Source of the DNA: Psammoneis japonica
Lineage: Eukaryota
Length of the DNA: 64,000 bases
Assembly: GCA_008632985.1 (NCBI GenBank)
Contig: QPGO01000071.1
Location: 297,516-361,515, forward strand
Direction: 5' to 3'
Shown one piece after another: positions 4,657 through 40,810 of the stretch (positions within the stretch are counted from its first letter, which is position 1; each line of letters opens with the position of its first letter). A model generated the notes under the pieces. The model had not been told where the DNA came from, ran no database searches, and saw only the letters and a list, made by a program, of their open reading frames with translations. Both the position numbers and the translations under genes were made by a program.

Positions 4657-5060
4657 GGGGGGCACATTCCAGCTCCAGGTGAGACCTTGCACTGCTGGGC
4701 TGCATGTGACATGAGAGTTTTTTGTCTTTCACCACACTCTACATGCACACACTTCTTCCATGTGTGCACTCTTCTGCAAAATTGCTGCATGCTCTCTCTT
4801 TCACAAAGCCAAAGGCTTTGTTGTGACCATTTGTGAGAACAAAAATGGGCTGGGCATTTGCTTCAATGTCTGAAAAAAAACACCCAGGCAAACCAGAAAT
4901 TGTGCACTCCAAGCATGACGAGTGGTGAGTTCACACATTCACACCAAAGTTGCCTCTTTTTCTGTTTGCTGTCATCAGCAAATTCATCATCTGACAGCTT
5001 TCCCACAAAGGTTGCACGTGAAATTCTTTGAGCTCAATGACACACAGAGTGCCTCCAGCT
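4657..5060 (+). repeat. Dispersed non-coding repeat, copy 1
   Basis: Core GTGACATGAGAGTTTTT..TTCTGCAAAATTG..CAAAGCCAAAGGCTTT..CTTCAATGTCTG shared with 29350-29720 (+) and 31030-31210, 31245-31418 (-). Confidence 0.7.
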
Positions 5061-9299: not shown

Positions 9300-11020
9300 T
9301 TTGCTGGCTGCCTGCTCTCTACAGCGGCTGTCGATCCGTCAACACAACACAATGTAATGCATGTGCAGGTGACATGATGTGAGGACAATCTGACATGTTG
9401 CCAGAAACTGCCAGTCTGTGTCAAAGCAAGTCTGACGCAACCTCTCAAGAGTGGTGAGAGAGCTGCTGCCCCCAGCCATCGCTGGAGTGCTTCTGCACCA
9501 CATGACACAATGACGACACAGGCCATGCTGGCTCCACAGTGCACGGCGGGCTGCTGGGATTGTGGGTCACTGTGCTCCAGGTGGATGCCAGAGGTTGGCC
9601 AATGCTCTCACCTGTTGCTGGGGTCAAGGAGGAATGCATGCTGCTGGAGCACAGATCATTCAAGAGGTGCGGCGACACATGGGGCCACAGGCTGCTGCTT
9701 CTTTGGTGGCTGGGGCTCATGATGGCTGACAGCCATGGCTGAAATGGTGCGGTTGCAGTCAATGCAGCAAGCAGTTGAAGACAACAACACTTGAAAGGTT
9801 TGCAGCCCAGGTGCTGCACCATGGAAAAGAGCAACAATGCAAAGGTTGCGCTCGATGTTTGGAAACAATTTCCACCTCTTGCTTTGTCCACAAAGAGTTT
9901 CCAACTTGTGGCAGTCTGTCCTTCACAAGTCATGTGGCTGAGCAAAAGATCTGGGATCCCCACAGCTCAGATCACAGATCACAACACAAACCTGTGAAGC
10001 ATTGCATCCATGACCACGACCATGAGCTGCAACATCAGACAGATGACAAAAAAGAATGCTGCAGGCATGGAGAATGCCTTGAAGAACAGAGGCAGCACCT
10101 TGAGGACGACAAGGATGACATGTGGTTTGACTTGATCAATGATGAGATTGCAAAGAATCTGTCCATGCTGCACTTTTAGATCTTCAACCATTGCCACCAG
10201 AATTGCAGATTCTTCCAAATGAAAAAATCCTTTTTTGTGGCATTTGAGAAAGAGATGGGGCAAAGTGAAGGGTCCCATCGTTGTTGGTGCACCGGCAAGT
10301 GGCTTGATTGGAACAAGATGCCTTCCAAATCCAGCGTGAAAGACACCAACAAGATCATCATTGAGGCCTGGCCTCGTGGTGCATCCGTCCCAAAGCATTG
10401 CGACAAATGCAGCAAATGAAGGGGGGGGCAACAGGAGAAGGGGATGACAGAAGAATGACGCCACAGTGTGCGTGAAAAACATGAATGTGCAGATGTGCTT
10501 CTAAATCAGAAACAGGAGCCATGTGCAATTTTCCAATTTCATCAAAACCCAGGAGACAGGCTGCTGCTGCTCCTTCATCACACAGCATTGTGAGCCGGTC
10601 TCTCAGTTGAAAATTGTGGTCTTGAGGTGGTCAAGTTTGCTTTGCGGTCTCTCAAAGGTTTCTGCTTTTGAATGATTTGCCTTCATGGACAGCAGGTTTT
10701 GCAACCATGGTGAAGTGGAAATGCAAAGCTCACAAACTCAACCCAAGCAACCATCACACTTGCTGCGTCCAGAGCAACAGCTCAAAAAGACAATCTCTTC
10801 CACCCCTTGGAGAGGTCACAAGGCTTGGGGAGAGAAATCCCCCGTCTTTCCACACTCCTCCTCTGTCGACTCTTGCATGTGGGCAGTCACAAAACTGCCT
10901 TTGCTCTGGGTTCCCGCTGCACCACGAGCTCATTTGTGATCAGTCGACAAGCACACATCTGTCAAAAATCAAAAACAAGAACATCAAACTCCTTCTCTCA
11001 GCTCTGCGGCTAGCGGCCTC
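9300..11020. other. TpA/CpG-depleted hypermutated domain 2 (island inside a divergent promoter)
   Basis: TA almost absent; contains a decayed + strand ORF at about 9960-10420; bracketed by the 33-bp direct repeat. Confidence 0.85.
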
Positions 11021-17199: not shown

Positions 17200-19250
17200 T
17201 AGCAATGCCTGGTTTAAAATTCATCATCACGTCAAAATCACTCATGCACAAGTCGCGTGTGATGTACCAAGTGGTGCCGGTGTGGTTGGAACAGCAGACA
17301 GCAGGGTTGGAGAAAGTGTGTCATGCAGGATGGAAAAGATGGTGTGTTGGTAGTGGGTGAGGCAAGTGATTTTTCAAGTTCCAGGGCATGCCGGGCAAGC
17401 TGATCTGCAAGGGATTGGGTGACAGCATGGCTGATGCTCTAAAGACCACACTTGGAGGGAGCAGCCATGGAATTGAGCAGGGGGGGGGGGGGGGGGGGGG
17501 TTGGCTTCCAGATGGCAAACTGTGAATGGGAAGATGAAGACACCTGCTTGGTTGAGATGGGCTGTTGTGGCAGGAATGTGAGCACCACTGTGTGTCTCAA
17601 TTCAAACTGGAAAAGAGGTGCTGGCTTTGGAACAATGACATCAGCCCATGCACATGTGAGGGAAGATGTCGAGGCAGTGGACAGTGTGAGTGCTTGTCAA
17701 AATTCAGCAGGGCATCCAAGTGGAGTGTGAGGCAGGAGAAAAGGTTTGCAGGTTCATGGTGGACCACACAGAGGTGTTTTGTGACAAAGATTGGCATGAA
17801 GGCCAACTGTCCAGGGGGTGGTGGCAAAGAGGCCATCAGAAATGGATCTCTTGGAAAGGGCAGTCCTGTGACTGGCAAGAGGTCAAACAGAGCAGCAGAA
17901 GGGTGGTTGCTGTGAGGGTCAGCAGCTTCACAATTACAGCAGGACATGTGGGCAAGAGCAGGTTGACATGGGAAGACATCAGCATGATGAAAAAGGCCTT
18001 TTGATGTTTGCTGTGCTCTTGATCAAGCAAGCAAGTTGGTGCAGAGGGCTGCTGACAAGCAGAAAAAGCAGGGGTGGCATTGCTTGAAGGGTGTGCAGAG
18101 AGCCATGCTGCACCAGAGAAAGTGGAGCTCATTGTGTTGGAAAAGTGCTGTCAGGGTTTTTGTGTGTTGAGCTGCTGGGCTGCATTGGAGATTTTTTCAA
18201 TGTGTTCTGCATGCAATTTCTGTGTTGTGATGGTGTGCCATGATTTTCCTGCCATGCTTTGTGCAGAGACAAGCGTGGCTAATGGCTCTGTGCAGTTCTT
18301 TGAGGAGAGGACACACATCGCTGGCTTGTTGACACAGCGCCTGGTGACAAAATGGGTTTCCAGGACTTTGCACACATGTGGGCAGCACTGAGACATTGAG
18401 GCACATGCACTGTGCCACTTTGCTGTGGCTGATTGCTGTTCACAGCAATGTGCTCAATTTCAATGTGGAGAAGCACGGCAGAAATCTTTGGCACATCATC
18501 CCATTTTCCCATCTCCAGATTTTCTGTCTCTGCTCATCCATGCCAAGCAATGTCCAAAGCACAGTGGCCCTGCTCACATGACTGGAGATGAGCCATCATC
18601 CAGCTTGGCTCTCTCACTCTGAATCAACTCATCCACACTTTCCGTTGTGATGACAGGCGTGGCAACTGCTCACATCTGGCGCCAACCCTCTCTCTGAGGC
18701 TCGCCTCAGAGCAGCGCCCAGGACAAGCGCTTCTTGGTTGCAGCTCCAACATTGTCATTTTGGCCTTCAGCTCTGCTGGCATCTTCCTCCTCCTGTTTGC
18801 CCTTGACCAACTTGGACTCAGGCATCACCCAGGCATCACCTGCACACCTTTGTCTCCGACCCAGATCTTTTTCTCACACCAGCACCTCCCCACCTCCCCT
18901 CTCCTCCTCCTCCTCCTCTGCNCTCCTCCTCCTCCTCCTCCCCCCAAGCCCCCTTGGTCTGCTCCCTCCAATTTCTCCAACTCTCAAGCCTCCTGCTCCA
19001 CGTGCCAACTCTCCCTTCTTCTTCGAAGCAACCTCCTTGCCCGCGCCAACACTTCTTCTTGGAAACAACTCTCCCCCCGCCCGGCTGCTTCAGATTGTCC
19101 CACTTGACTTCTCCTCTGCCCCACAATCTTGGGTCACCCAACTTCTCAGCCTCAACATTGGCCTTGCCCTCTCCAACCACCTTTCTACCTGCCAATCTTT
19201 TCTTCGTCGCCACCCCACTGCCATGCACCATGCACACTGTGCCGGTGCAT
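17200..19250. other. TpA/CpG-depleted hypermutated domain 3
   Basis: TA near absent; contains G21 at 17480-17500 and a (CCT)n pyrimidine tract at about 18890-18945 with an N. Confidence 0.8.
17250..18050 (-). mobile_element. Possible relic of the C-terminus (zinc knuckle + RLE endonuclease) of a CRE-like non-LTR retrotransposon
   Basis: Decayed CCNC..ADPHSNH (cf. CxC..DxxGDH), HRTALS..ISDGLF, VHHEPANL; needs de-mutation and frameshifts; a similar tail (SWVTQLLSLNIGLALSNHL) lies on + at about 19100-19200. Confidence 0.3.
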
Positions 19251-19482
19251 GCCATCCACGCAAAAGCACGCCTGCCCGCCATCCACCTCCCCCTTCCTAC
19301 CGTCCGCACGTGCCACCGGCGCACCCTTCTATCTTCTATCTATCTCTCCGCCAATCAACCCTGCCCTTCTTTCTGCCTGCCTTGAGCCTCTGCATTCCTC
19401 GCTCGTCCTCTTCTTCTAAAAACAAAACAAAGTTGGCTGCTTTGCATTCCATGTTGCAGTTTACAGTGCTCTCTGTTCAGCC

Positions 19483-20172: not shown

Positions 20173-20463
20173 TCCCTGTTTCGAAAGTAGTCGTAGAAGC
20201 GACTTGGAAGCAGGAGACAAGGAGGGTTGCTATTTAGGCTTGCGAGAGCATTTTGCGCTCGAGGAAGATACAAGATGTGTGCGCGTCGTTTTCTGCGCCG
20301 CCGCTCATCATGTCAAAAGTCCCTGTTTCTAAAGCAGTCGTACAGTAGAAGCGACTTGGAAGGAGGGGACAAGGAGGGTTGATTGCCAGAGGCTTGCGCG
20401 AGCAGTTTTGCACTCGAGAAACATGCAAGATGAGTGCACGTTGTTTTCTGCACCGCCGCTCAT
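20173..20463 (+). repeat. About 140-bp tandem duplication straddling a domain edge (20173-20308 / 20320-20463)
   Basis: TCCCTGTTTC.AAAG.AGTCGTA..GAAGCGACTTGGAAG..GACAAGGAGGGTTG..TTTTCTGC.CCGCCGCTCAT present in both copies. Confidence 0.9.
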
Positions 20464-20949
20464 TCTTCTCTTCTCTGCTTCCTCCACTGTGCTGTGTGCG
20501 CCGTCAGCAGCACAGAACAACTCCCACAAGTTGTCAAGAGGCCATGGTGAAGGGTTGGTGTTGTTCCTTCTATGAAAATGTGATGCCTGTGTCAGCACCT
20601 TTGATGCAGCAGAGTTCTTGGACAACCTGTGGCTGCCTGATTGATGCAGTGTTGTGTGGTGCAAGCCGGGATGACGTGGGCGATCTTGGTTTGTGCAAGA
20701 AATCAATGAACCAACTCAACAATTGTGCCAGTCAACCTGGCACCCTCTGTGGATTTTTGGCCAGCTGGCAGCAAAATGCTCTAGACTGGCATCTAAATGG
20801 GAAAAGACAAAGCGAGGCACACTGAACATGTGGTGGTGGAGGAGCATCACACCAGCCGTCAGCTGTTCTGTGCCTTGGCACTTGGCAGGGCCCGCTGTTC
20901 TGTGCCTTGGCAGGGTGCTGTGGTGCAGCGACATGTGCTGCCCAAAGTC

Positions 20950-23750
20950 AAGGCCATCTGTCACCAATTTTCAACAGAGGCAGGTCCCCAGTTCAGGAGC
21001 TGACAAAGCAAAAATCTTGAAATCTAGCACACACTGTCAAAGTCTGTTCAAGACACCTCAGATGCACTTGCCCCATCCTCCTGCTCCTCTGTGCAATGAT
21101 GTGGATGTGTGAGGTGGGGCACCATCTTTGCATCTGCTTTTGGGCTCCTTTGTTCTCAGCTGTGCTGCAACCCATTTCCACAGCACAGCCTTTGCTCTGG
21201 CTGCAACTGGCTGGACCAACACTCCTGTGGTCCTTTGGTGCCTTTTTCTTGCCACTGCAATGATGGTTCAAGCCAAGGTTGCTTGTGTGTGTGTGTGGTG
21301 CTTCAACAATGATGTGACTGAGTGGCCATGAAAGAATCATCAGAAATTGGCTAGAAACTGTTCTGTGCTGCATCAAAAATGGCATCACACATGCCCACCC
21401 AGCTCCAGCATTGCCCGTTCTTCACTCAGCCAGGGGTGTGGTGCATCAACCTGTGTTTTTGCATTCCTTGTGGGATTTTGAGTGGCTGTTTGATTCAACA
21501 GCACAGCACCCACCTGAGGCTTGTCTTCTGAAAAAGCACCGCTGGAAGTGCTTGTCTTTTGCATGATTGATGCCTGCTCTTTTGCCACACAGCCTTCCAG
21601 AAGCCTGTCCCAACCAATGGTGCTCTGGGTTAGAATGGCTCTCAACTCCTGCTGCTGCAGCATTGTTCTTGTCTGTCCAGAAGATGTTTTTTTGAGAAGT
21701 TTGCTCCATTTTGTCATGGCTTCTGGGCATGCCATGGTGTGTGCTGCATCTTCATCCTCTCTTTCACATCAAGGGCATCTAGAGTGGGTCTTGGACTTTC
21801 CATCTCTTCAGCCATTTTCCAACTCTGCATGTTCCTGTGGAGTGCTTGCTGACCACTGGCAGCACCCTGTTCCCAAGTTGGTTAGAAACTTTGTTGATGG
21901 CCTCCCAGCTGACTCTTTGGCCTGGGGTGTGTCTTCCTTGGTGCTTGTGTCATTTTCTGACAAAAAATTCCAAAGGTGCTTGATGCCCCTGCAAGGCACA
22001 CTCAACGCTTGTGCAGCTGGGGGTGTGTGTTTTTCTTGGTGCTTGTGTCATTTTCTGGCAAAACTTTCCAAGAGTTCTTGGTCAAAAATGCTGTTGCAAG
22101 GCATTCAAACAAGGTCCTGTGTGATTTGCCCAAGAACCTGCCACCAACTCCAATTTTGAGTCCACATGCATTTCCAGCAGAGCTTGTGTGAGGTCACCTG
22201 CAACTGTTGTTGTTTCCCATGTTTGAGGAGGGCTTCAATGTGCTTCCTGAACATTGTGTGAATTCAACTGATTTGAACATGAGTCCTTGAAGTCTCTTCA
22301 CAGTCCCTTGAGTGCTGCTCTCAAAAGATCAGAGCTTTGATGTGCTTGCATTTTTTGGAGTTGTGGGCAAGCACATGAGCACATGACAACTGATCACTTT
22401 GCAAATCTGTTGCACAAGTCGTGACAGCCATGCATCTGATTTTGCAAGGTGGCCAGACTGCACATGGTCAGCCCAGGAGCATGCCTCTGCTTGTTGCTTG
22501 GCGCCACCACTGCCTTGCTGTGGTTGCCATTTTGTGCCAGCGACACCTCCTGAGTCTTCTTTGCTTTCCTTTGATGCAGGCATGACATCTGTTGCTTTTG
22601 GTCATTCTGGTTCTTGATGCACATGTGCAGATCATTCTCATTGGATGGATTGATTTCATTTTCCACATGATGTCATTCCCTGTTTTCCATTTTTAACTCA
22701 ATTTGGTGCCTTCAGCACTTGTCAGGCCACCACACATGTCTCCTCCAGCAACCCACACATCACCTGCAAATTGGTTGAGCCCTTCCTGCATGTCCTTGGC
22801 TGCTTCCAAGCAGCTTGGCCAGTGAAGATCCATGGCAAAAAAGGCAACCTGGCAAAATCTGTTGGGTGCCTCCATTTTCTTGTCTGAGACCCTGTGAATG
22901 CTTGTCCTCCAGATCAAAGTGTGTGGCCTCAAAGGCTGTCTGAAACAAAATGTCTGCTCAGGCCATCTGACAATCAGAGCCCATTGCACCTTGTCTCCAA
23001 AGAAACCACCTTGTTCAATTTGAGTGCCTGCAGCAGAGCACATCCTGTCAATCAGGAGAGCCCCAGGGTGACATGTTGCAGAGAGATGATGTTCCTCCCT
23101 GCACTTTTTAGATGAGACATTGTGCAGCTGCATCTTGTCAAAGCTTTCTTTGATTTTTGTGTTCCATTTCTGAGCTGTTTCCTCAAGAAGATTTTGAGTC
23201 CATGCAAGTCTTGGGCATCTGCTGTCATTGTGGTTTTCTCAAAAGAATTTTCAGTGCTGGGACATGGTCATCAATGAGCTGCAATGATGCCAAGAATGGC
23301 GGCTCCAGTCTTGCCTCTGAATCTTGACCACAGGTCCATCTGCCTGGCCTTGTGGGGTCTGTCCCTTTCATGACTGCTCTGTGTCCTGCTTGCTCAGGAC
23401 CAAGGTGCCCCCAGGTTGACAACGAGAGAAGTGTGCATCATCTGTGTTGCACCCCACACAGAAATGTGTGGTGGGAGCTCCCAGTGCTTTCTGAGTCATG
23501 CTTGTGGTTTCATTTCATGAGGCAGGGGGTGGGAGCATTCTCCAGCAGCTTTTGGTTTCACTCATGTGTGAAATGCTGGTGCTCTTGTCAGCCACCACTT
23601 GATGGATGCTGTCATTCTTTTCTCTTCATTGGAGCTTGGGACCCCATTGATGTTTTGGAAGGCTGTGCAGAGGGTGTCCTCTGTCTTGCATTTTGTGACT
23701 TTGGCCACACAGGTGTTGCAAGGTTTTGGTTGGTCTGTGATGTCTTGTGC
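20950..23750 (-). mobile_element. Degenerate APE-type non-LTR retrotransposon (LINE): endonuclease, RT and C-terminal zinc-finger remnants
   Basis: In order on minus strand: AFQNINGVP (about 23650), GTDPTRPGRWT (about 23350), MQEGLNQFAGDVWVAGG (about 22760), WADHVQSGHLAKSDAWLS (about 22450), HIEALLKHG, RCP*CEREDEDAAHTMAC (about 21750), QSTIGWDRLLEG (about 21610). Confidence 0.7.
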
Positions 23751-24218
23751 CCTGTTGTTGTTTCTTCCCAGGGGTGGCCATCTCTCTTCATCAAGGAGCC
23801 ACGTAGCCACAAGTCCTGTTTTTGCCTGCTGAGCTTTTTTTGCTTGCCAGCTTGAGTGGAGCTGGGGGGGTGACTTTCCTCCCCATGTCGCAGTGTGTGG
23901 CATTGCCAGAGATGCTTCTCTCCTTGCCATTTGTGTTGTTGGGCCACTCAAAGAGAACTTTTGGCAATCTTGGTGTCATCACCTTGGGTGCCAGGCATGC
24001 TGCCCTCATTGCCAGAGCTGCTGCTTGTCTTGCCCTTGTTTGTCAGCGCTGCTTTGAGTTGTGACACAAGCAATCTCACAGAAGTGTCCCTTGTTTCCTT
24101 CTGAAACAAAGTTTCCAGAAAACAAGCGAGCGACATTGCAAATTTGATTGGTGTGTTTTGTGGTTTCTTTTTGGTGGTTTTTGCTGTGGCTGCCACATCC
24201 AATTACAAAAAAGGCTGG

Positions 24219-24752
24219 TTGTTCTTGTGAGATGGTGTGTCACTTGCATCACTTGCATTGTTTGTTGTTTCTTGGGTGCAACATGGGCTGATTTGCCATT
24301 TTAGACACTGTGGGCTGACACAATTGTGTCTTTTTCATCCAATCCTCCTTCTCCAAGCATGACTGGATCTGCCGGATTGTCTGGACAAGTGCCCTTTGGT
24401 GGTGTGTCTCCAATGGAGCACCCCCCATCTCCTTCTTCTGCTGCAACCATCACCAAGATTCTTGAAGCTGTGCTCATGCTGTCCTTGATTGTCCTTGTGA
24501 AATGGTGTGTCATTTGCATCATTTGCATTTTTTGCTGTTTTTTGGGTGCAACATGGGCTCACTTGCCTTTTTAGACACTGCGGGCTGACACAATTGTGTC
24601 TTCATCTAATCCTCCTTCTCCAAGCATGACTGGATCTTCTGGATTGTCTGGAGTGTCCTTTGATGGTGTGTCTCCAGTGGAGCATCCCCTGTCTCCTTCT
24701 TCTGCTGCAGCCATCACCAAGATTCTTGAAGCTGTGCTCATGCTGTCCTTGA
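24219..24752 (+). repeat. About 270-bp tandem duplication (24219-24488 / 24489-24752)
   Basis: Near-identical units ending CACCAAGATTCTTGAAGCTGTGCTCATGCTGTCCTTGA. Confidence 0.92.
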
Positions 24753-25929
24753 GGGAGTGAGCTCCTTGAACACCACACCAACTTTGGTTCTTGGGTGGAT
24801 GGCTTCATGTTTCTCTTTTTTCCAGCCTGCCTTGCTTCTCTGCATGTGCTGCACATGACAGGAGAAAGAACTTTTCCATGTTCTTGCCATGCTTGAGATG
24901 TGGATGTGGGAGCACATGACACATTGGGGCCACTTTGTGCTCTGTTTGCAGATCACACAGGGCTGCCACACATCTGCTGCAAGCATTGGAATGTGTTGCT
25001 CCAACTTTCATGAGTTGAGGGACTTCAGGCTTGTGGTTTGATGAGACATCTGTTGTTGTCATTTTGCGCAGAGAGTGACTCCTCAATTTTTGGTCAACTG
25101 CATCAAGAGCTTGTGCGTTGTTGAGAATGAGAGTCTTTGATTGTGTGAGGCATGCTTGCTGCCAAATGTCTCCCTTGTCAACTGGATCAGATTCAGTCAA
25201 ACTGATGTGTTGTGAGCATTGAGGCATCAGTCTGGCTGATGTTTTGAGCAGCTGGTTCTTGGTGGCCCTGGAAAACGTTCATTGGAGCATGGGGCATGTT
25301 GTTCTGGCACCATTGGAGAGCCAACATTGTTGCAACAACCTGTTGGTTGCAGGAGGTCCCTTCTGCAGCATCTGCTGGTTTCATGACTTTCTTTGCTCTA
25401 AGCTCCACTGGCTTCCCAAGAAGCTGACTGACCCTTGGCTCCATTTTCACTGGGTCAAGTTGGCCCGACATCATTGTTGGCCAACCACAGCTTGTGGTGA
25501 GTTCTGCATTCTGTGGAACCTTGGGTTTGCACTCTCCAGATTTCCAGACAACTCTTGCCAATTCTTCTGAGTTGACCACAAGATTGATGTTTATTTTGCA
25601 CAAGTTGTGCACGCAGACAGAGGAAGAGGATTTCTCATGGGAGACTGGGCAGCCTGTTCTGCCTTTGTTGCAGTGCAATGAAAAGCAAAGAGAACTGTTG
25701 GAGCATGTTCCAGCTGAGCCATTTCTGTTTGCGGCTGCTGTGGATTGGAATGATCACTCAAGGTCATTAAAAATGAAATCACTGCCCAGCAATGATTTTT
25801 CATCCAGAAATGTTCAACAGGAGATGTTTTTAAAATGGGCCCCATGTGCCAGTGCACAGATCTCAAAAAAGAGGGGAAACAGCAAGACAGAGCAGGGTGC
25901 AGAGTGGATGCAATGCTGGTGACAAGGAT

Positions 25930-27150
25930 GCCACTGACAATCCACCATCATCCTGAAGTGAAATGATGTTCTCTGCAACTGCATGGCCACTCATGGCAGC
26001 ACTGTGTGCAAATGCCCAGTTGTGTGCATCGCCATCAAAAGGTGTGGCTTTTCCCACAAAAAAGAGCTTGTTGCTGCTGACAGGTCTTTGCATTGCATCA
26101 ATGGCGCAGTCACAAGATGCTCCCACTTTTGCCCAACAAGTGCAACCCATCTGAATGCATGGTTCCTCAACCCAGTTCTGAACAACACAATTGACAAGCT
26201 TGGATGAAGCCTTTCCATCAACATTTCATCCAAGTCTGCCAAGACTCCATCCACAGCACAACCACCTGATTGCTGGTTGCATTGACATGTTGATCTGCAA
26301 CAGCTCCACAAACAAAGAGCCCCAAGATGCCAGTGTTTGAAGTTTGGCCAAATGTCTCATCTCAGCACAGCCTCTTGCCAAAATCACTCAATGAGAGGTC
26401 TTCCACATCAAACTCATCAAAATCACATTCAATCACAAGCACCAAAAGGACAAAATGCATCTGTGTGCTTGCAAAACACCTTGATCCCAGGGGCCATTTC
26501 ACAGTCATCAATGGCTTGAGCGCAACTGTTGGGCTGGTCTGGAACAAAAAAAATGGCCTTGTTCTGCAACATCTGCCTGCATGATGCCTGAAACAACCAG
26601 TCTCTGTTTTTCCAAGAAGCTTTTATGAGCACGATGCTGTGGTCTGTTTGTGTCATGGGACAATCAAGAACGGTGTGTCTTCTGGATTCAAAGTCGACAC
26701 CAGTTGGTCATTGAGAAAGTCCCGTCACATTGAATTGACCCACTTGCAGTCATTTGCTGATGGTTCAAAATCAGCACAGTTGCAAATCAAAGAACCATCC
26801 ATGTGGACACCTCTGACACATGATGCTTGACTGTCGAAATGCTGCTTGCTGCATCTCTGTCTGCAATGGGATTCAAAGCTGACACTGGATCACTGTGAAT
26901 CCACTCTCCACCAACATCAATGGGAAAATCAGCCAAGGTGTTGTCTTTTTTCAACCAACTGCTGATGCAATCCAACACCTCGAGAATTGTGTGGGAAAGA
27001 CCTGCTTGTTCCAAGCATCAGGCTGCTGTCAAACCAGCCGCACCTGCTCTGACAACAAGAACATCCATCATGTTTGGTGCCGATGTGACAAACTGCACAG
27101 AGCAGAAAATGTTGTGGCAGAGAAAGCTGCTGCGGTCATGACAGAAATGA
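25930..27150 (-). pseudogene. Flavin-containing amine oxidoreductase pseudogene (hypermutated)
   Basis: DVLVVRAGAAGLTAA*CLEQAG.SHTILEVLDCISSWLKKDNTLADFPIDVGGEWIH (FAD fold), QNWVEEPCIQMGC, LFFVGKA, WAFAHSAAMSG; stops and frameshifts. Confidence 0.85.
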
Positions 27151-29349
27151 CGTGAAAGTGCAATTTTCAAATTTCAGATTGCCGCTGCATTTGCCACATC
27201 ATGATTGCATCATGATGTTGATGACATCAAAGGATTGCCATGTCATGTGGACATCATGTCAATGACGTGCATTGTCAAGGTGCATCTCATGCATCATCGT
27301 CTCTTGCCCCTTGCTCATGCTGTGCCCACTTGCCTCATCAACTCAGCTCAGACCAACAATCTTGCAAATTGTGCTGTGCTCTTTCTGGCAAAGCTGCCTG
27401 TGGTGAGCTCAGTCATGCCCAAATTTTCTTTCTCAATTCACAACCACAGATGGGGCAGAGTGTCAAATTTCACAAAATGTGCACTCTTCTCCACTCACAA
27501 AGTTGGCATGGGAGACAGGCGAGCATTGCGATGCCCTCCTGTGTTCTCACAATGAAGGACATCAACCAGCATCTGTGGAGGCAGTGGCTTGTTTTGCCAC
27601 CTTTGCTGCTTTAAAGTCTGTGTCTTCTTCTTGCACAGTTTCCAGGGGTCTGGCAAGCCATCTTGCGGTGCACGTGTGATGTGAGTTGGTTGCCCGCAGA
27701 AGAGCAGGCACTGTCTCCTTTGACGTTCCCACTCACAACACTCTTGATGAAGAGGAGAGATTTGGAAGAGCTGGGCTTGGCTGCACACATCCTGTGTGGC
27801 TCCACACATGTCCCCCAAGAGGTGCTGCACCAAACATTCTTTGCAGTGCTCCTGTTGTGCTGCTGCCAGCTCAATGGATGAATTGCTGCCAGCAAGGAAG
27901 CTCTTGCCAAGAGAAGATTGGCTGGCAAAGGCTCAATGGTCAACATGTGCACAATTTGTCTGTGAATTGAGGGTGGTGGCTGCTGGTCATGCTGCATGTG
28001 AGCCACGCACAAGACCCTCTCATGAGTTTGGGTGTGCAAGTTGATCCACTGGCCACCATTTCTCAATGTTGTGAATCTTTGTCATCCACAGTGTTCTTGG
28101 ACAAAGTTCTACCTGCAGTGCATTGTGCATCATTGGCGCCATCTTCATGTTCTTTGTGCTGTGAGCATGCCATGTCTTTCCAGCAGCACAGATTCTTGTC
28201 AGCAGGGATAAAGCCAGTGGACCATCATGGCTGCCACAGACATCAAAGCATGTGGCAACACTGTGTTGCTCTGCTGAGAATGTTCCAGTCAAGAGTGAAA
28301 ACCGTGTTTTGGACCAGCATTGTTGTGCCTGCAGCCCACAAACAATGCAGTCCCTTGCTGCTTGTTGTGGCCATGCTGACATCAGCACCTCACCCCTGAG
28401 ATCAGCTGTGGGCTGCCCAGGTGAGTTGCTCCATTTGGGGGGGGGGGGGGGGGCAACAAGCACCCAGATGGCATGAAAAAGCTTCCCAACACATGCTTTC
28501 ACCAACAGGTCATCCATCTCTCCATGCATGTTCAAATGCTCCATGCAGGTCCTCCTCAACTGTCTTCCAAAGTTGCCTCCTGATCATGGTGCTCTCAGCT
28601 CTTAATTTCTCTCAGCACATTGACAATGGGGAGAGCTCAGATCAAGTTGCAAGTGGGCCAGATGATGTCACAATTTGTCTGCTTTGAATCATTGCACATG
28701 CTGAAAAATCCTGTCTGAACTGCAAGATTGGAGCCGCACCCACACAAGATCTTGCTCCCCTGTGCAATGTCATGATCCTTGCACATTTTTTCAGGAAATG
28801 AAGATCCCCAAATGCGCCTCCCAATCAATTTGCTCCTGTGTGGGGTCAAGTCCTCTGCATTCCCCAGGGTTTGATTGACTCCTTGACAGCAACAGGGGGT
28901 GTCACTCCACTGGAGCTAAAATCACTGCATCAGGGCTGAGGTTGTCCTTGCACCATCTGCACCACAGATGGCAGTGCCTTTGATGACACCCCCCTTGCAC
29001 CAGCAGATGAATGTGTGGGGCTGGTGAGCCCTGCACTTGACACACTGCCGCTCATGGAGCAGCAGGAACAAGTGCTGGTGGGCAGACTGGGCCTGGTGCC
29101 ATCATTTTGTGCAAGACCCTTGACATCAGAATGTTGCAGTTGGGTTGGGTGAGCATTTGCTGATGGATTGTGCAGCTGCAGCTGGCAATGCCACTTCCAT
29201 TCATGGCAGCACTTCTGTCACCTTCTTGGGCAAGGAGCAGTTTTCCAGAGCTGAGCAGAGCCATGAAGCACCAGATGGTTGACTTGCCCAATGTCCAAGT
29301 CTTCATCTGAGTTTCTCTGGATCATTCCTGCTGACAGAACAAAGGCTGC

Positions 29350-31418
29350 ATGTTGCAGCTCTGGGTGGGACCTCACACTGCTGGACTGTGACATGAGAGT
29401 TTTTGGGTCATGTGCCGTGTGTCACGCGTGCACATTTCTGCATGTGTTCTTCTGCAAAATTGTCGTGTGCTCCTTGTTTTGCAAAGCCAAAGGCTTTTTG
29501 TTTTCCACCCATTGGCAAAAACAAAAAGTGACTGGGTGTGTTCTTCAATGTCTGTGGAGTGTGCCTTGCCAAGCTGGAAATGATGCACTCCAAGAATGAA
29601 AGAGGAGATGCAGTCACAAAATTGCCTCTTTTTCTGTTGATGACAACCAACACATTCACCACCCTGTCATTTTAGTGCAAAGCTTGTGTGCAGAATTCTG
29701 TGCACAAATGTCACACAGAGGAGCCCCGCCAAGGGCTGGAACACATCGGTCATGGCTTTCTGCCACAGTCTCCAGCATGGGTGAGAAGGAAATCCTGCTT
29801 GTTTTGGCCACTCAAAATTGAAGTGAGACACAGCCACAATGACCAAGATTTGCACTGCATTCAGCCAGTCAACAAAAGCCAATCTTCCTGAGCTTGTTGC
29901 CTTTGTGGCTCCTGTGACCAATGACCACATCTGCTGGGTGGGAGTTGCTCTCTTTGATTGGTTGAGTTGCCTCTGACAGGGCCAGAAGGTCAAAACCCCA
30001 TGTTCGCTGCAAAATTGTGACAGTGATTTCACCCAGGCATCTGCAGCTGACAGCTGACATTGTTTGCTGCTTCAGAAGCTGGAGCAAGCAAACCTTCTGG
30101 AAATGCTCCAGCTCAAGTGTTGTCATTTTGAGCACTTGTTAAAGTTCTGTGCTTGTGTCAGAAGGTGAGCCTCCAGCTTCAATGCCTGGGGTGATGCAGA
30201 TTTCTGATGCTCCCATGCTGCTGCTGGATTTCTTTGGTGTGCACGGGATTTTCTGCAGAAGCAAAGGGTCAAGGACAGCTCATCATTGGCTTCTTGCTGA
30301 TCTGCTGTGCACACTGTTTCCTTGTCAAGAAGAAGGAGGTTGCAGCCAATGGATGTTCTGTTGCTCTCATGACTCCACCTGTGAGAGACAGCCATGCCTT
30401 CATTTGGTTGATGTGGTGTTTGCTGCACTTTTTTTTTTTAGAATGGAAATTCTGTCACAATGTTTGGCCAGCATGTCTGCTTCTGCCAAGCAAATCACTT
30501 CATTGCAACACATTGTCAAAGTCAAAAACTGCCTCTGCAACATTCAGTGTGTGCTGGCTCACTCCAAATGTCCAAGCTGGTGGCCAACAAATTTGTTGAT
30601 CTTTTTGGGGCCAGTCATGTAGAAAAGAGTGCACACAACTCAGTTCTCCCAATTTTTTGCATCAACAAAAAATTGTGCCCCCAGAAGATTCTTCTTTTTT
30701 GGTGTGCATTCTTTGCACAACAGAGAGAGAGCAGACATCCTTTCAAAAAAATCAAGCACAGCAAAAGAAATGGAAAATCTGCTGTGCCCACATTCCCATT
30801 GTTTTGCCCCCAAAAAACAACTCCAAAAAAAGAGAGCTTTCTCTCTTTTTGTCTGCACCCTCCAAAGAACAAAAAAGGCTGCTGGTTGTTGTCCAATGAA
30901 AGAAGATGCAAAAAGGTGAGAAAAGCATGAGCTCAGATGAGAATTTTTTCTTGCACAAAAAGTGCCATGACAGAAAACAGACAGATCCAATGTTGTCACA
31001 CCCCCTCGTAAGTCACACGGGGATGAAAACACACTGGCACCACTTTTTTGTTCTTGTGAGCATGTGTCAAAATGGAAAGTCTGCAGCTTCACAAAACAGG
31101 GAGCACAAAACAATTCTGCAGAAGAGCGCATGCAGAAATGTGTGTGTGCAACATGTGACACACAACAGAAAAAACATTCATGTCACATCATGCCAGCACA
31201 TGTGCCCCCCCTCCTGGGGCTGCAGTGTGTCCTTCAAACACTGAATGAGAAAACACTTGGCCAGCAGTTTTTGTTTTCACAAATGGTGCTGTGACAAAAA
31301 GCCTTTGACTTCACAAAACAGTGAGTGTGAAACAATTTTGCAGAAGAATGTGTGCATGTGACATGCAGCACATTGTCAAAAAAGCTCTCATGTCCTCACA
31401 GTCAAGCAGTGGCTGGCC
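29350..31418. mobile_element. Possible non-autonomous TIR element: a + copy of the dispersed repeat (29350-29720) facing two - copies (31030-31210, 31245-31418)
   Basis: Reverse complement of 31245-31418 reads CACTGCTTGACTGTGAGGACATGAGAGCTTTTT..TTCTTCTGCAAAATTG..TCAAAGGCTTTTTG, matching 29375-29500; no TSD identified. Confidence 0.45.
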
Positions 31419-31543
31419 ATGAGGTGCTCTGTTCAGACCAAGGCGGTGGAGCACATTGAACAGCCAGCCAAATGCCACAATCATCAGCATTCCCCAGAAA
31501 GTCATGGCTTGTTCACAGCAGGAAGTGTGACTTTGGTGAAAAC

Positions 31544-31861
31544 AGCTGTTTGTTGAGCACCACACCTGCACCAAATCTGAGGGCTGGCTGGCACTTGAAG
31601 GCAGGCAAAAAGCATGGCTTGCATGCAGGACTGACAGCCCTGGTGGGGGCTGGGCAAACTCATCATGAGCACAGTTTTGGGGTGCTCAGAGGCACACTGC
31701 AAAGCAACAAGAGCTGTTTGTTGAGTGTTGCAACTGTGTGCATCAGATCCAACAGCTGGCATTTGAAGGCAGCCAACAAGTGCAGCTCACACACAGGTCT
31801 GGCAGCCCTGGTGGGGGTGCCAGACACACTCATCATGAGTGCTTTGGGGTGCTCAGAGGCA
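31544..31861 (+). repeat. About 168-bp tandem duplication
   Basis: AGCTGTTTGTTGAG..GCTGGCA.TTGAAGGCAG..CAGCCCTGGTGGGGG..ACTCATCATGAG..GGGGTGCTCAGAGGCA occurs twice. Confidence 0.85.
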
Positions 31862-31957
31862 TCAAAAATGACACCAGCAAAGTGCAGGAAAATTGCACAA
31901 AAAGAATCATGAGCCACTGAAGTCATGCCGCCACTCAAATCGATGGCCCATCCTTTG

Positions 31958-32843
31958 AGGTGGTGTGGGTGCAAAGTGGGCCAGGTTCTGCACACACAGA
32001 GCTCAGTGTGTTGTCTGCACAAATTGCCAAAGTCAGCTTGCCAAATCAAATCTGCCAGATGATGGAAACTTGAACATGTTTCACATGACAAAGTGTTCAG
32101 AGTGCTCATTTGCACTCCCATTGACTTGTTTGTGGAGAGAAACAACATGTTTTCTTGCACTCGTAATTTGCAGCATGGCTCCACAAAACTTGAGCATTAT
32201 GATTTTGGCACCTTTCTTGTCAGACTCAGTGTGTGTGATTTGTGCAAAGGTGGCGTGGGTTCAAAAGTGGGCCAAATTCTGCACACGTGGAGCTTGGCAT
32301 GTTTTCCACACAAATCGGCAAAGAGTCAGCTCACCAACTTCGACCCTCTCCATGATGATGGAAGCTTGGATGTTTCGCACATTCAAGCATTTGGGCCACT
32401 CATTTGCACTCCCCTTGACTTGCTTGTGCAGAGAGAAACAACATGTTTTCATGCGTTCGTCATTTGTTGTGGCCACGCAAAACTCAAACGTCGCAATTTT
32501 GGCACCTTTCTGATTGGGCTCGGTGTGTGTCTTTCAAAAAGATGTGAAAACATGTTGTTTCTCTCCACGAACAAGTCAAGGGGAGTCCAAACAAGCACTC
32601 CAAACACTTTGTCATGTGAATTGTCCAAGTTTCCATCGTCTTGGAGAGGGTCGAAGTTGGCAACAAGCTGACTTTGGTGATTTGTGCAAAGGTGGCACAG
32701 GTGCAGAAGTGGGCCAGATTCTTGGCACGCAGAGCTTGGCATGTTTTCCACACAAATTGCCAAAGTTAGCTCACCCTCTCCAGGACAATGGACAGAAACT
32801 TGGGCATGCCAACAAGCTCTGGCCCACTTTTGCACCCGTGTCA
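31958..32843. repeat. Foldback-like array of a 290-bp unit (direct, direct, inverted partial, direct partial, short inverted)
   Basis: Units at about 31958-32250 and 32248-32530 (+), 32547-32676 (-), 32677-32790 (+), 32821-32843 (-); shared AAGTGGGCCA, CATTTGCACTCCC.TTGACTTG, GAGAGAAACAACATGTTTTC. Confidence 0.8.
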
Positions 32844-33199
32844 TCATCATCTAATCTGAATCTGAACCCCCCCCCCCTTCCCAAAAACGCACTGATTGAC
32901 AGACTCCTCTTGCAGTACAAATTCTACACACGGTGCACAAGATTCACACTTCTTCGGCCAGGCACCTTGAACCTTGAACCTTTGCTGCGAGCGAGACTGA
33001 TGAAGAAGCCCCGCGCGCCCCCAGCCAGCATCCGCCCCATGAACGTCGAACATCCGTTGCATGTGGTTGCCTCAGTCTCATCTCTACCGGTAGAGCCCTA
33101 CTCTAGCTAGTAGTAGAGGGCTCTGGTCTCTGGTTCTACGACTACAGTGCGGCAGTCTTCTGTAATAACATTGATTTCCTTGTGATAAAATCGACAATC

Positions 33200-38999: not shown

Positions 39000-40810
39000 C
39001 TTGGGTTTTGGAAGCACTCACAACAGTGGTGCCTTGACACTGAAAATGACACTTGACAATGAAAATGAGAGGAATGCATGGAGCAAATCCAGACATCATC
39101 ATCGTCCATTGTCGCGAGGAGTCGCGACCGGTGTTGGTGTTTCAGTGCGTGTGCTGCGTCAATGACCCTTTCCGATCTTTGGACAAAAATAGAAGAATTG
39201 TGACTACTCACTCCGCGCCCGCGCTGGGCTGCTGCTGGCTGGGCTGCTGGGCCGCTCTGCCCTGCTCGTCGCGCGACCAGAGGGCACGTCCCACAACAAC
39301 CCCCTGCCATTGTTGGGGGAGCTCCACCAGTGCTGTCAGAGTCTGTTCCATGCCCCCCACGCTTCTTGGAAAATGAAGCATCTCCAGCCACTCCAGCTCC
39401 CTTGTCCACTGCACAGCAGCTGCAGCACCAGCATCCAACACAGCAGCTGCAGCGGCGCCTTTGGTGCGCCGCTGTTGCAGCACAAGCTCTTTGCCCGAAG
39501 CAGTGCTTCCCATGCAAACCACCCTGCCTGCACTGTGTTGCTCTGACTCTTTCAAGCTCAGTGTCTGTTTTGAATTAAGCAAGAACAACCAAGTTGAGGC
39601 ACAGGCCATCTTGCACTTCCTCCGTCTTGTTCTACACACAACCTTTTTGTTTTTTCTGGGACACCAGCAGCAGCTCCTCCTGAGTTGATGCCTGGCCAGC
39701 AGAGAGGAGGATTTGAGAGTGGTCTGCAAAACCCCTCCAAAGACATCTGCTGGAGAACTCCACCACAATTTTACAAGCTTGGCAAGGCCAGAGCAGATTT
39801 CAGCTGGGCCCTCCTGCAAAACCCACGCGCACAGTCAAAGCAAAAGCAGCCGACTCTTCCTGCAAGCCCCCCCCCCCAGCCACCCCAAGCAGCATGGAGA
39901 AACAACTCCAGAAATTTTTCTCATGGATGACCCAGATGTGCCCCCCCCCCTGGCATGGCAAGGCACTTCTTCTTGCTGACACTCTGTGCTGGCAGCAGCA
40001 ACCCCAGCTCTGTGCAAGATCGCTGCCACCCGGCATGTGTTGGGAGGGCAGAGCAATGTTGGGGAGGAAACCATGTGTGTTGCTCTCTGGATTTTACACC
40101 ACTCACCACACCATGCTGCAGCTGCTGGCTGCCTCCCCCCCCTTGCAACAAAGATGCGCGCCATGCCACGAGCACATCGCACACTGTGGGCTGCCCCTTG
40201 ATGGCCCCTTTTGCCTCAATTTTTTGTCACACTCACACAAGAGCTGCAGCTCCAATCTCTGTGAAAAAGGGGGAAAATGTGCTGCCTTGTTGTTTGAAAA
40301 GAATCATGTTGCCACCAGCACATCACAAGGGGTCTTTTCCTGTGTGGTGGTGTGTGTCCCCCCCCCCCCCGCCACCACTCCAGGAGCTCAAGGGATGCCC
40401 CCTTGCTCTTTCAATTCAGTCATTCAATTCATCATTTGCTGCCTTTGTGTGTGAAAATTCAGTGAAAAAACAAGGGACAGCCAAGAGATTTCCAAGAGCT
40501 GGGTGATGCTGCAAAATCCAGAAAGGTGGCTGGGCATGTGTGTTTGTTCCTTGCTCAATTTTGCCACTCTGCATGCTTTCTGTTCTCTCTCATGCATTGT
40601 TGACTTTCTCTTTTCAATCACTTGTGGCTGACATGGGATGGAAATCTGGCTTGCCATCCCAAGGTCAAACAGGGCATGTCATCAATGCTGGGTGCCATTG
40701 TCCACAGGCTCAGACCACTGTCTGGTGTCATGCCTTTTTGGGACATCGAGAGAAAATGGCTTCCATCCAAAAGCCTGTTCTACATTGTTTGCACTCCCAT
40801 GACTGCAACA
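39000..40810. other. TpA/CpG-depleted hypermutated domain 5 (between the two GT paralogs)
   Basis: TA near absent; several poly-C tracts; ends about 30 bp from the paralog B stop codon. Confidence 0.85.

Follow-up and report, generated by a model that had tools for sequence, protein, structure and literature searches.

Six sharply bounded, gene-free domains in a 64-kb stretch of DNA from a pennate diatom (the window, i.e. the whole of the stretch analysed) very probably record a hypermutation directed at TpA and acting in place. The explanation that we prefer as a whole, with somewhat better than even confidence, is that TpA and CpG steps have been turned by transitions into TpG/CpA where they stood, the TpA arm through adenine deamination like that of Bigelowiella natans and the CpG arm through 5-methylcytosine. 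The original prediction, of an undescribed mutator converting TpA into TpG/CpA in domains of LINE relics, repeats and dead gene copies, is partly supported: the process is upheld, at the level of DNA, also at CpG and confined to bounded gene-free stretches, whereas 'undescribed' and 'LINE relics' are not. According to the accessible text of a preprint, TpA-only hypermutation has already been reported in B. natans (10.64898/2026.01.13.699255); no report of TA-erasing hypermutation in diatoms was found in the literature.

Extent and composition of the domains

Segmentation of the window yields six domains, together 24,781 bp or 38.7%, in agreement with the predicted share of about 40% (o/e, observed/expected; none has a strand assignment):

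2873..5514: domain 1, 8 TA (o/e 0.05), 29 CG (0.19), TG o/e 1.89, CA o/e 1.76
9426..10911: domain 2, 2 TA (0.02), 25 CG (0.27)
17331..19442: domain 3, 10 TA (0.09), 33 CG (0.22)
20516..32831: domain 4, originally given as 20400-33070, 33 TA (0.04), 86 CG (0.12), 1526 TG, 1319 CA
39375..40762: domain 5, 4 TA (0.05), 17 CG (0.18), flanked by two unmutated paralogous genes
43556..48392: domain 6, 17 TA (0.05), 66 CG (0.24)

Across the six, TA o/e is 0.02-0.09 and CG o/e 0.12-0.27, with the anticipated excess of TG (1.62-1.89) and CA (1.65-1.90); outside, TA o/e is mostly 0.4-0.8 and CG o/e 0.8-1.2 in 1-kb windows. Genes adjoining the domains have an ordinary composition, including the paralogues on either side of domain 5 (36708-38894 and 40841-43030, 79% identity), while the noncoding, untranslatable sequence of the domains is depleted in TA and CG like the rest. 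Between 20400 and 31000 (10,601 bp), where about 30 TA had been claimed against several hundred expected, 29 were counted; the rate in normal DNA of the window would give ~400 and base composition 697 (over 200 shuffles the mean was 696 and the lowest count 632); the claimed count of six TA in 13021-13080 is likewise correct, and 20400-33070 holds 36 TA, 105 CG, 1557 TG and 1354 CA. A 33-bp direct repeat (9231-9263 and 11163-11195), with both copies in normal DNA, brackets domain 2.

In these gene-free tracts of diatom DNA lie copies of dispersed repeats, local duplications and one or more dead genes of host type. No transposon or viral Pfam family, reverse transcriptase and endonuclease included, was found in 92 open reading frames or in 36 six-frame read-throughs of the domains; the LINE relics are not supported. 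Nor is the pattern general around diatom genes, since the combined loss of TA and CG occurs in none of 254 1-kb windows from 29 diatom-like metagenome loci (150 kb).

Mutation in place

Taken together, pyrimidine-purine steps have kept their share of the sequence, at 0.2380 in the domains as compared with 0.2418 in normal DNA. When 95% of TA and 85% of CG in the window's normal DNA were turned into TG/CA in a simulation, the product resembled the domains with r = 0.962 for 3-mers and 0.951 for 4-mers, against 0.717 and 0.685 for unconverted normal DNA. Further evidence comes from sequences within the domains:

29340..29650, plus strand: copy of a ~300-bp dispersed repeat (self-BLAST), with others at 4655-4975 (plus), 31035-31200 (minus) and 31250-31425 (minus)
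31958..32530, plus strand: two diverged direct copies, 31958-32236 and 32248-32530
24216..24752, plus strand: younger tandem duplication, 24216-24488 and 24486-24752, ~90% identical
25953..27071, minus strand: dead intronless amine-oxidase gene, 373 codons in a single frame with 10 TGA stops

Where repeats in the domains mismatch, 144 of the 432 positions belong to TG-versus-CA double differences (doubles); two control repeats from normal DNA give 8 of 494 (Fisher p 7e-44). The dispersed repeat contributes 60 such doubles in 366 mismatches over six pairs; its copy at 29340..29650 has a summed contig depth of 1957-2533 in the DNA run X1 described below, against ~56-89 elsewhere. To judge by their differences, the copies at 31958-32236 and 32248-32530 were mutated independently (66 mismatches, including 12 doubles and 8 CG-versus-TG/CA sites), whereas the tandem duplication, with just one double in 22 mismatches, postdates most of the conversion. 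As read from such comparisons, the domains are once-normal sequence altered by mutation, separately in each repeat copy.

The amine-oxidase relic verifies one of the dead gene copies predicted. Besides weak Pfam matches to Amino_oxidase and NAD_binding_8, phmmer returned 678 hits at E<=0.001 (best 5.4e-28), with N- and C-terminal parts matched in one frame and Thalassiosira and Phaeodactylum proteins among the named homologues. As predicted from conversion of Tyr codons into Cys/His, the relic has no Tyr (15.4 expected, p 1.5e-7) and is rich in Cys (16 against 3.4 expected) and His (17 against 7.5), as well as in Met (14 against 6.3); each of its 10 stops is a TGA, and no frameshift interrupts the 1.1 kb. 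With respect to the best homologue, the changes include Y>C twice, R>C, R>W and G>S twice, and, in what is a weak test, a single reversion of a TG/CA step explains 9 of 52 differing conserved columns against 6 of 52 for a mock GT/AC rule. The direction of change, from TA to TG/CA, would follow from composition, repeat copies and relic, rather than from an ancestral or unmutated copy or a substitution table.

Edges, strand symmetry and sequence context

At domain edges the TA content changes within ~50-100 bp, and three stretches are informative in this respect (the first two without strand assignment):

5301..5800: TA-free edge with CG mostly retained, 1 TA (o/e 0.03), 18 CG (o/e 0.59)
47701..48100: second TA-free, CG-retaining stretch, 0 TA, 18 CG (o/e 0.72)
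20173..20463, plus strand: direct repeat over the left edge of domain 4, with 20173-20308 in normal DNA and 20320-20463 running into the domain

The two copies of that direct repeat mismatch at 14 positions, and at 6 of them TA or CG of the outer copy faces TG/CA of the inner one. No stretch with the reverse pattern, CG lost and TA kept, was found in the window; TpA removal is at least as thorough as CpG removal and spans slightly more DNA. The TA depletion of domain 1 runs on to ~5800.

The conversion is strand-symmetric, both strands being equally affected: TG forms 0.48-0.54 of TG+CA in each domain, and the lag-1 autocorrelation stays between -0.02 and 0.05 except in the smallest, domain 5, where it reaches 0.18. 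It also has a flanking-base preference, with RTAY fully erased and YTAR partly spared. Indeed, none of the 74 residual TA in the domains lies in ATAT/GTAC/ATAC/GTAT, against 352 of 1343 in normal DNA, and 44 of the 74 lie in TTAA/CTAA/TTAG/CTAG, against 221 of 1343.

Proposed process and alternatives

In the process that we propose, both strands of domain DNA would be mutated where they are located, transitions collapsing TpA and CpG into TpG/CpA. In the TpA arm, adenine in a 5'-TA context would be enzymatically deaminated, A to I being read as G, and the leading guess is an ADAT2/TadA-like deaminase brought to silent chromatin; in the CpG arm, 5-methylcytosine would be deaminated within that same methylated chromatin. 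By analogy, the TpA arm is probably the same kind of process as in B. natans; a 5-methylcytosine route for the CpG arm is moderately favoured, and an adenine deaminase as the enzyme of the TpA arm is given slightly less than an even chance. On the assumption of equilibrium in the domains, TpA would be removed at least ~75 times faster than it is re-created from CpA/TpG, the corresponding factor for CpG being at least ~22.

The latter excess is within the range for 5-methylcytosine deamination alone and speaks against a single chromatin-targeted deaminase with A and C activity, which would turn TpA and CpG into TpG on either strand without 5-methylcytosine and which we consider unlikely. In its favour, the two depletions occupy the same domains with near-identical edges, TpG would be the product of both on the deaminated strand, and amphioxus and Trypanosoma ADAT2 are cited as DNA A and C deaminases in the preprint text available (10.64898/2026.01.13.699255). 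Nonetheless, 5301-5800 and 47701-48100 have lost TA without CG, CG removal is the less complete of the two, and, in that same text, only A:T pairs mutate in B. natans.

An attack on thymine is quite unlikely: here a modified T at TpA (e.g. 5-hydroxymethyl- or 5-formyl-uracil, from a TET/JBP-like enzyme) would mispair with G to give T>C. Since TpA is its own complement, the sequence cannot tell A from T as the attacked base, T>C being A>G on the other strand, and equal yields of TG and CA fit either; moreover, dinoflagellates carry 5-hydroxymethyluracil in place of T, preferentially at TpA and TpC. Against this, the present data give no pointer to T over A, TpC is not depleted (the GA/TC share differs little, at 0.118 in domains and 0.137 in normal DNA), and we know of no such T modification in diatoms.

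Error-prone patch repair, a candidate in the original prediction, is very unlikely. Here, much as in the second phase of antibody hypermutation, methylated-CpG lesions would call in mismatch repair together with a polymerase of the Pol eta type that misinserts opposite T at WA; CpG and TpA losses do share their location, and Pol eta prefers A>G at WA, TA being its best site. The idea fits poorly because the second WA motif, ApA/TpT, shows no depletion (share 0.1613 in domains, 0.1565 in normal DNA); furthermore, TA loss reaches past CG loss, and the complete removal of RTAY is far more specific than Pol eta.

A sequencing or polishing artefact, in which long-read miscalls of modified bases would hide true DNA with TA and CG, is highly improbable in the light of X1, a DNA run from which contigs were built with exact 31-letter words (mean word depth ~56-89), and which may itself be the assembly's source, its library type not being on record. 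The contigs contain 98% of 996 words sampled from 19500-29000, and eight long pieces, each with 0-4 differing letters, cover 17000-34000. Across these 17 kb, domain and flank alike, contigs and assembly differ by 10 substitutions and 7 insertions or deletions, and neither TA nor CG is restored in bulk; the match makes a base-calling artefact unlikely, the letters being present in accurate reads, and bears out the assembly's bases as far as the possibly shared origin allows. Of the eight in-domain substitutions, three are TA versus CA/TG, one is CG versus CA and two form one TG-versus-CA double; the TA differences have no polarity, and ordinary C>T at CpA would yield them too. At 18922 the assembly also has an extraneous N and X1 is one base shorter, a point in favour of an artefact. 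A miscall would, however, be identical in every copy, from which the relic's residue changes and the TG-versus-CA alternation differ.

RNA editing before insertion, with ADAR-like A>I edits of transcripts fixed in the genome through reverse transcription, is scarcely credible, even if the relic lacks introns and ADAR favours a 5' U (available text of 10.64898/2026.01.13.699255). It is already contradicted by the equal conversion of both strands; in addition, the relic has an excess of both Tyr>Cys-type and Tyr>His-type changes, copies of one repeat were converted separately after insertion, and conversion runs over element boundaries to fill entire intergenic blocks. TAG, the triplet preferred by ADAR, is among the most retained contexts. 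Equally hard to credit is a native composition, i.e. foreign DNA always devoid of TA and CG, or selective removal of these steps: both are under-represented in many genomes, but the diatom-type relic with 10 stops and zero Tyr and the repeat copies with TG or CA as alternative products at the same sites already contradict it, and noncoding sequence that is never translated is depleted as well.

Comparison with known systems

AID/APOBEC with Pol-eta spreading and ADAR hyper-editing are, as here, targeted, enzyme-driven transition hypermutations, in their case for defence or diversification; however, they are C-directed or RNA-directed, and the WA motif beyond TA and the strand bias expected of them are not seen here. 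The natural target of TadA and ADAT2-ADAT3, A34, always follows U33, a TpA-like context. ADAT2/3 is, to our knowledge, present in every eukaryote, so that finding it in this diatom would prove nothing; TadA, ADAT2-ADAT3 and the TadA-derived base editors are known enzymes, whereas here the enzyme is a candidate only. DNA activity of some ADAT2 enzymes is cited in the text seen of 10.64898/2026.01.13.699255.

The decay of methylated CpG in vertebrates, plants and Cryptococcus likewise turns CpG into TpG/CpA with reciprocal gain, in presumably methylated silent DNA, but it cannot remove TpA, the loss of which is here wider and more complete than that of CG. RIP, in Neurospora and other fungi, shares with the present case a hypermutation by transitions, domain by domain, which kills repeats and any genes lying inside and makes its targets unrecognisable in similarity searches, and diatoms have RID-related DNMT4 genes, described as of unknown function in the part of the source consulted (PMC9998398). 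Yet RIP turns CpA into TpA, whereas here TpA is what disappears and CpA is the end product; unlike in RIP, most domain DNA has no second copy in the window, a pair of 2.2-kb genes with 79% identity is left untouched, and strand-coordinated runs are not seen.

The closest counterpart is in B. natans, where, in the accessible text of Mettrop et al. 2026 (bioRxiv 10.64898/2026.01.13.699255), bounded regions of integrated viral DNA undergo TpA-only A>G/T>C hypermutation: of the 231 mutations in two regions of mutation-accumulation lines, 230 were A>G or T>C, all of the latter at TpA, at ~1000x the background rate. Common to both algae, on that text, are TpA>TpG/CpA conversion on both strands of bounded regions in an otherwise normal genome, long-term clusters poor in TpA and rich in CpA and TpG, many of them unannotated, and an ADAT2-like adenine deaminase as the enzyme proposed. 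The two belong to different supergroup branches, B. natans being a chlorarachniophyte (rhizarian) and the present organism a diatom (stramenopile). Within the limits of the same text, the diatom further differs by a saturated footprint over 39% of the 64-kb window, by a coupled loss of CpG that the preprint does not mention, by a rule of RTAY over YTAR for which no analysis was found there, and by targets with no viral or transposon domain found, one being a host-type gene, where those of B. natans are viral; mutation was observed live in B. natans and is known here from its footprint. The footprint of a targeted TA-erasing process has so far been reported once, in 2026, in an unrelated alga.

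Extent and composition of the domains

Recounting of dinucleotides across the window, in 1-kb steps and by density segmentation, delimits six blocks that are poor in TA and CG and rich in TG and CA. Numbered from left to right, they sum to 24,781 bp and so take up 38.7% of the window.

Domains as delimited by density segmentation
2873-5514, domain 1
9426-10911, domain 2
17331-19442, domain 3
20516-32831, domain 4
39375-40762, domain 5
43556-48392, domain 6

Within these blocks the observed/expected ratio (o/e) is 0.02-0.09 for TA and 0.12-0.27 for CG, the latter being less completely removed in every domain, and 1.62-1.90 for TG and CA, a gain that matches the loss of TA. Outside the domains, most 1-kb windows have a TA o/e of 0.4-0.8 and a CG o/e of 0.8-1.2; in the flanking genes, TA o/e is about 0.4-0.8. 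The observation of bounded domains from which the original prediction started, six in number, is reproduced along with its counts: 29 TA are found in 20400-31000, against about 400 predicted from the rate in the normal DNA of the window and 697 predicted from base composition (200 shuffles, minimum 632), and 6 in the normal DNA of 13021-13080.

TA density shifts over about 50-100 bp at every domain edge, and the domains occupy the space separating genes. Domain 5, for example, is enclosed by two paralogous genes of normal composition, both unmutated, which share 79% DNA identity over 2.2 kb:

36713-38935 and 40843-43053, (-) strand, paralogous ORFs in tandem, each about 740 aa long, without Pfam family

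The block edges would probably track chromatin borders set by adjacent active genes. Domain 2 is bracketed by a 33-bp direct repeat (9231-9263 and 11163-11195, 32/33 identical) lying in normal, CG-rich DNA about 160 and 250 bp off the domain edges, which may be the trace of an insertion or duplication of that block.

Evidence for mutation in place

Judged from the sequence itself, the domains are once-normal DNA that has been mutated, a conclusion drawn from mass balance, repeat copies, a dead gene and the differences between sequencing contigs and assembly. The share of pyrimidine-purine steps (TA, CG and CA/TG together) among dinucleotides is conserved between normal DNA (0.2418) and the domains (0.2380). 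Simulated conversion of the window's normal DNA, with 95% of TA and 85% of CG turned at random into TG or CA, lifts the correlation with the domain spectra from 0.717 to 0.962 for 3-mers and from 0.685 to 0.951 for 4-mers.

Repeat copies are informative, since independent conversions of an ancestral TA or CG leave a site that reads TG in one copy but CA in the next, so that the copies were mutated when already in place. A repeat of about 300 bp, found four times across domains 1 and 4, has 366 mismatch positions between its copies, 120 of which belong to 60 TG-versus-CA double differences (the remaining double-transition classes number 17, 9, 5 and 3), and a diverged pair of direct copies (31958 and 32248) has 12 such doubles among 66 mismatches. 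Two control repeats in normal DNA have 2 in 423 and 2 in 71 mismatches; when pooled, TG-versus-CA positions make up 144/432 mismatches in domain repeats and 8/494 in controls (p 7e-44). A tandem duplication at 24216/24486 shows a single double among 22 mismatches and is therefore younger than most of the conversion.

Sequence accuracy and read support

The comparison with reads relies mainly on X1, a public DNA run of unrecorded library type that may itself be the source of the assembly. X1 contains 98% of 996 sampled 31-letter words from 19500-29000, and its contigs span 17000-34000 as eight long pieces with 0-4 differing letters each, at a mean word depth of about 56-89 both inside the domains and in the flanks, two repeated parts excepted. 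Exact-word contigs at such depth imply accurate reads; thus, the absence of TA and CG is present in the reads themselves. Inside the domains X1 and the assembly differ by 8 substitutions, namely three of TA versus CA/TG, one of CG versus CA, two forming one TG-versus-CA double and two others. These differences, which carry no polarity, are compatible with ongoing conversion and no proof of it.

X2, a run of the same sample labelled 'DNA?', covers parts of the flanks only (19472-20028, 33062-33685 and both ends of the stretch) and contributes one 43-letter piece (29351-29393) inside domain 4. At 33166, just beyond domain 4, its contig has C for the assembly's T, a TA-versus-CA difference in otherwise normal DNA. 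The assembly carries a single N at 18922, in domain 3, where the X1 contig is one base shorter, which looks like an assembly or polishing blemish.

Summed over X1 contigs of at least 90% likeness, depth reaches 1957-2533 at 28907-30040 and 110-780 at 30608-32875, as compared with about 56-89 elsewhere, these sums not being copy numbers; 202 of the 291 contigs so matched are only 90-95% alike. The raised depth indicates that both parts belong to many-copy families with diverged copies elsewhere in the genome, and the loose ends of some such contigs, which carry CG and TA, suggest copies with unmutated flanks.

A dead amine-oxidase gene

When the frames of domain 4 are translated past stops, a single weak Pfam match is obtained, to the amine-oxidase Rossmann fold. 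It marks a gene relic:

25953-27071, (-) strand, dead amine-oxidase gene, 373 codons, read through stops

A phmmer search with this frame matched 678 proteins at E<=0.001 (best 5.4e-28), N- and C-terminal parts lying in the same frame, and the relatives that carry names are proteins of Thalassiosira profunda and of Phaeodactylum designated monoamine oxidase. The 10 stops are all TGA. Tyr is absent where 15.4 would be expected from 17 homologues (p 1.5e-7), and there is an excess of Cys (16, 3.4 expected), His (17, 7.5 expected), Met (14, 6.3 expected) and Trp (13, 7.1 expected). Changes with respect to the best homologue include two of Y>C, one of R>C, one of R>W and two of G>S, matching those predicted by TAY>TGY/CAY, CGN>TGN/CAN, ATA>ATG and, after a codon ending in C, GGN>AGN. 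Overall identity to the 17 aligned homologues is only 24-29%, and no closer relative emerged when proteins were searched a second time, the best local identity being 57% over 16% of the query. In a codon-reversal test, undoing one TG/CA step accounted for 9/52 differing conserved columns, against 6/52 under a mock GT/AC rule, a difference that is not informative. By homology and composition, the relic is a diatom-type, i.e. host-type, gene evidently hit by the conversion.

The core of the original prediction, a mutator turning TpA into TpG/CpA, is thus supported, if indirectly, by the mass balance, the simulation, the repeat doubles and a relic devoid of Tyr. As far as sequence can establish it, conversion of TpA and CpG to TpG/CpA in bounded blocks is demonstrated to have occurred in place, strand-symmetrically and in a context-dependent manner.

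Other contents of the domains and the surrounding genes

Nameable domain contents comprise only the relic, the dispersed repeat and local duplications. Pfam searches of the 92 domain ORFs of at least 100 aa gave one sub-threshold WD40 match and nothing more, and six-frame read-throughs (X at stops) of the domains other than domain 4 gave 0 families in 30 frames. LINE relics, as named in the original prediction, did not come to light: none of the 92 ORFs and 36 frame read-throughs matched a family of reverse transcriptases, integrases, transposases or viral proteins. Heavy mutation may hide these and other relics; the amine oxidase, a phmmer match at 5e-28, was barely visible to Pfam. Dead gene copies, also named there, are represented by the amine oxidase; a tblastn search with the window's own ORFs found no dead copy of any window gene in the domains, and self-overlaps at their edges only. 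Long domain ORFs, such as one of 317 aa at 44695-45645, look like chance products: their translations have no Pfam match, and by a rough estimate about 0.2 such ORFs would arise by chance with TGA as the sole stop.

The window carries long, mostly uninterrupted ORFs. Pfam families found in it include a plastid-type sigma-70 factor, an FGGY kinase, a class-3 lipase, an ERGIC/thioredoxin protein and a TraB-family protein, among others; no deaminase is found among the 12 large window ORFs scanned. The sigma factor is encoded by a nuclear gene:

58794-60263, (-) strand, plastid-type sigma-70 factor, identified by Pfam

Its best named relatives, at 46-51% identity, are from Seminavis, Cylindrotheca, Amphora, Phaeodactylum and Pseudo-nitzschia, with unnamed matches of up to 59%. 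The named genera being pennate diatoms, the window is nuclear DNA of a pennate diatom. Two further ORFs, both without Pfam match, are internally repetitive: one of 1077 aa (13410-16643, (+) strand) has 72-bp (24-codon) tandem repeats of 77-87% identity at 14897-15538, and one of 676 aa (54043-56073, (-) strand) contains a duplicated segment of about 750 bp (54080-54827 versus 55190-55898, 85% identical).

Strand symmetry, sequence context and loss of CpG

TG makes up 0.48-0.54 of TG+CA in each domain, meaning that both strands are affected. TG and CA follow one another with little autocorrelation, the lag-1 value being -0.02 to 0.05 in five domains and 0.18 in the smallest; a random-strand simulation gives a similar result, and no runs of one product are seen. 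Context matters: none of the 74 residual TA lies in ATAT, GTAC, ATAC or GTAT, as compared with 352/1343 TA of normal DNA, and 44/74 lie in TTAA, CTAA, TTAG or CTAG (221/1343 in normal DNA). Since RTAY is identical on both strands, one strand-level preference, for a purine 5' of TA or a pyrimidine 3' of it, covers the whole series.

TA loss can be separated from CG loss. TA is lost and CG kept at 5301-5800 (1 TA, CG o/e 0.59) and at 47701-48100 (0 TA, CG o/e 0.72), and no stretch with CG loss lacking TA loss was seen in the window. If the domains are near equilibrium, we infer that removal exceeds re-creation at least about 75-fold for TA (re-created from CA/TG) and at least about 22-fold for CG.

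Mechanism

Loss of TpA would be enzymatic. The most likely route, albeit a tentative one, would be that an ADAT2/TadA-like enzyme works on DNA and deaminates the adenine of 5'-TA; it is favoured because A34, the natural target of these enzymes, is always preceded by U33, and because the sole live observation of such a process, in Bigelowiella natans, points likewise. TpA is its own complement, so that the sequence alone would equally fit an attack on the thymine by mutagenic modification, a reading that we consider improbable. Next to the adenine deamination favoured here, loss of CpG would most simply, and rather plausibly, be due to deamination of 5-methylcytosine: PMC9998398 reports CpG methylation of repeats in the diatom species studied, and its disappearance when DNMT5a is lost.

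Such 5-methylcytosine-driven decay can account for one arm only and fails as the sole process, TpA being also lost, more completely, and where CpG is kept. Duplication as a trigger finds some parts of the domains repeated; most domain DNA has no second copy in the window, and the paralogue pair at 79% identity is unmutated. Fungal RIP, in which a RID/DNMT4-type methyltransferase is required and C mutates to T at CpA, leaving an excess of TpA, does not fit DNA in which TpA is nearly absent and CpA/TpG are in excess. ADAR-type RNA editing fixed by retroposition would give A>G on the transcribed strand only; TG and CA are symmetric and the relic is enriched in both Cys and His. Pol-eta hypermutation (WA motif) fits poorly, since A>G would be expected at ApA as well as TpA, and ApA/TpT is untouched, with an undiminished AA/TT share of 0.161 in domains and 0.157 in normal DNA.

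A broader scheme, which we regard as unlikely in its entirety, would be that chromatin-guided natural DNA adenine editing in diatoms, maybe the work of one enzyme active on cytosine too, brings every TpA (and CpG) in silenced DNA to TpG/CpA, with RTAY preference and at tens to hundreds of times the background rate, and that it is shared with rhizarians and hence ancient in SAR. If true, it would be fungal RIP in mirror image, and wild-type enzymes for editing A in DNA could be obtained from it.

Significance

The phenomenon is striking and little known. We know of no cellular process that, before the 2026 preprint on B. natans, had been recognized to mutate A:T specifically at TpA in bounded regions, and a second case, in a diatom, would mean that the process is no quirk of one alga. 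Repeats and pseudogenes in such domains escape similarity searches, a point relevant to the annotation of diatom genomes. The underlying enzyme, if a natural DNA adenine deaminase, would be of interest to genome-editing research; present adenine base editors depend on laboratory-evolved TadA.

Comparison with known systems

With respect to fungal RIP, which makes TpA, the chemistry is reversed and, as far as can be seen, there is no duplication trigger. In the literature searched, no report of a signature erasing TA and CG in diatoms was found, the only report of the kind to emerge being that on B. natans (Mettrop et al., bioRxiv 10.64898/2026.01.13.699255, 2026), by which the 'undescribed' of the original prediction has been overtaken. 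TA-poor, TG/CA-rich windows number 0/254 in 29 diatom-like metagenome loci (150 kb, gene-centred contigs around the sigma-factor gene), and there are none in 51 bacterial loci (485 kb). The pattern either belongs to a restricted lineage or occurs only in repeat-rich DNA missed by gene-centred metagenome contigs, which tell little about repeats elsewhere.

According to the main text of the preprint, 231/302 nuclear mutations in B. natans mutation-accumulation lines fell in two integrated viral regions, and 230/231 of these were A>G or T>C, all stated to fall on TpA, at a rate of about 6e-7 per site per generation, approximately 1000 times background, in some lines only. In that genome, windows poor in TpA and rich in CpA+TpG form 124 clusters, and 324 predicted CDS are depleted in TpA, these CDS being enriched in reverse-transcriptase and DDE domains; the authors propose an ADAT2-like deaminase (bioRxiv 10.64898/2026.01.13.699255). 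That main text makes no mention of diatoms, stramenopiles or CpG, and no flanking-base analysis was found in it.

The diatom domains are probably a further case of this newly described kind of process. In both organisms TpA becomes TpG or CpA on both strands in bounded regions, the rest being ordinary. However, CpG is lost too in the diatom. Furthermore, the B. natans targets are viral, whereas the diatom domains gave no viral or transposon Pfam match (92 ORFs, 36 frames) and their one identified relic is of diatom type, though heavy mutation may conceal others; and the B. natans rate comes from live lines, whereas here a removal/creation ratio of at least about 75 is inferred from a static assembly and one sample's contigs. 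Relative to the main text of the preprint, what is new is the diatom host, a saturated footprint that reaches over host-type genes as well as repeats, a CpG decay that occupies the same blocks and is yet separable, and, as further constraints on mechanism, strand symmetry without runs and the rule by which RTAY is erased and YTAR spared.
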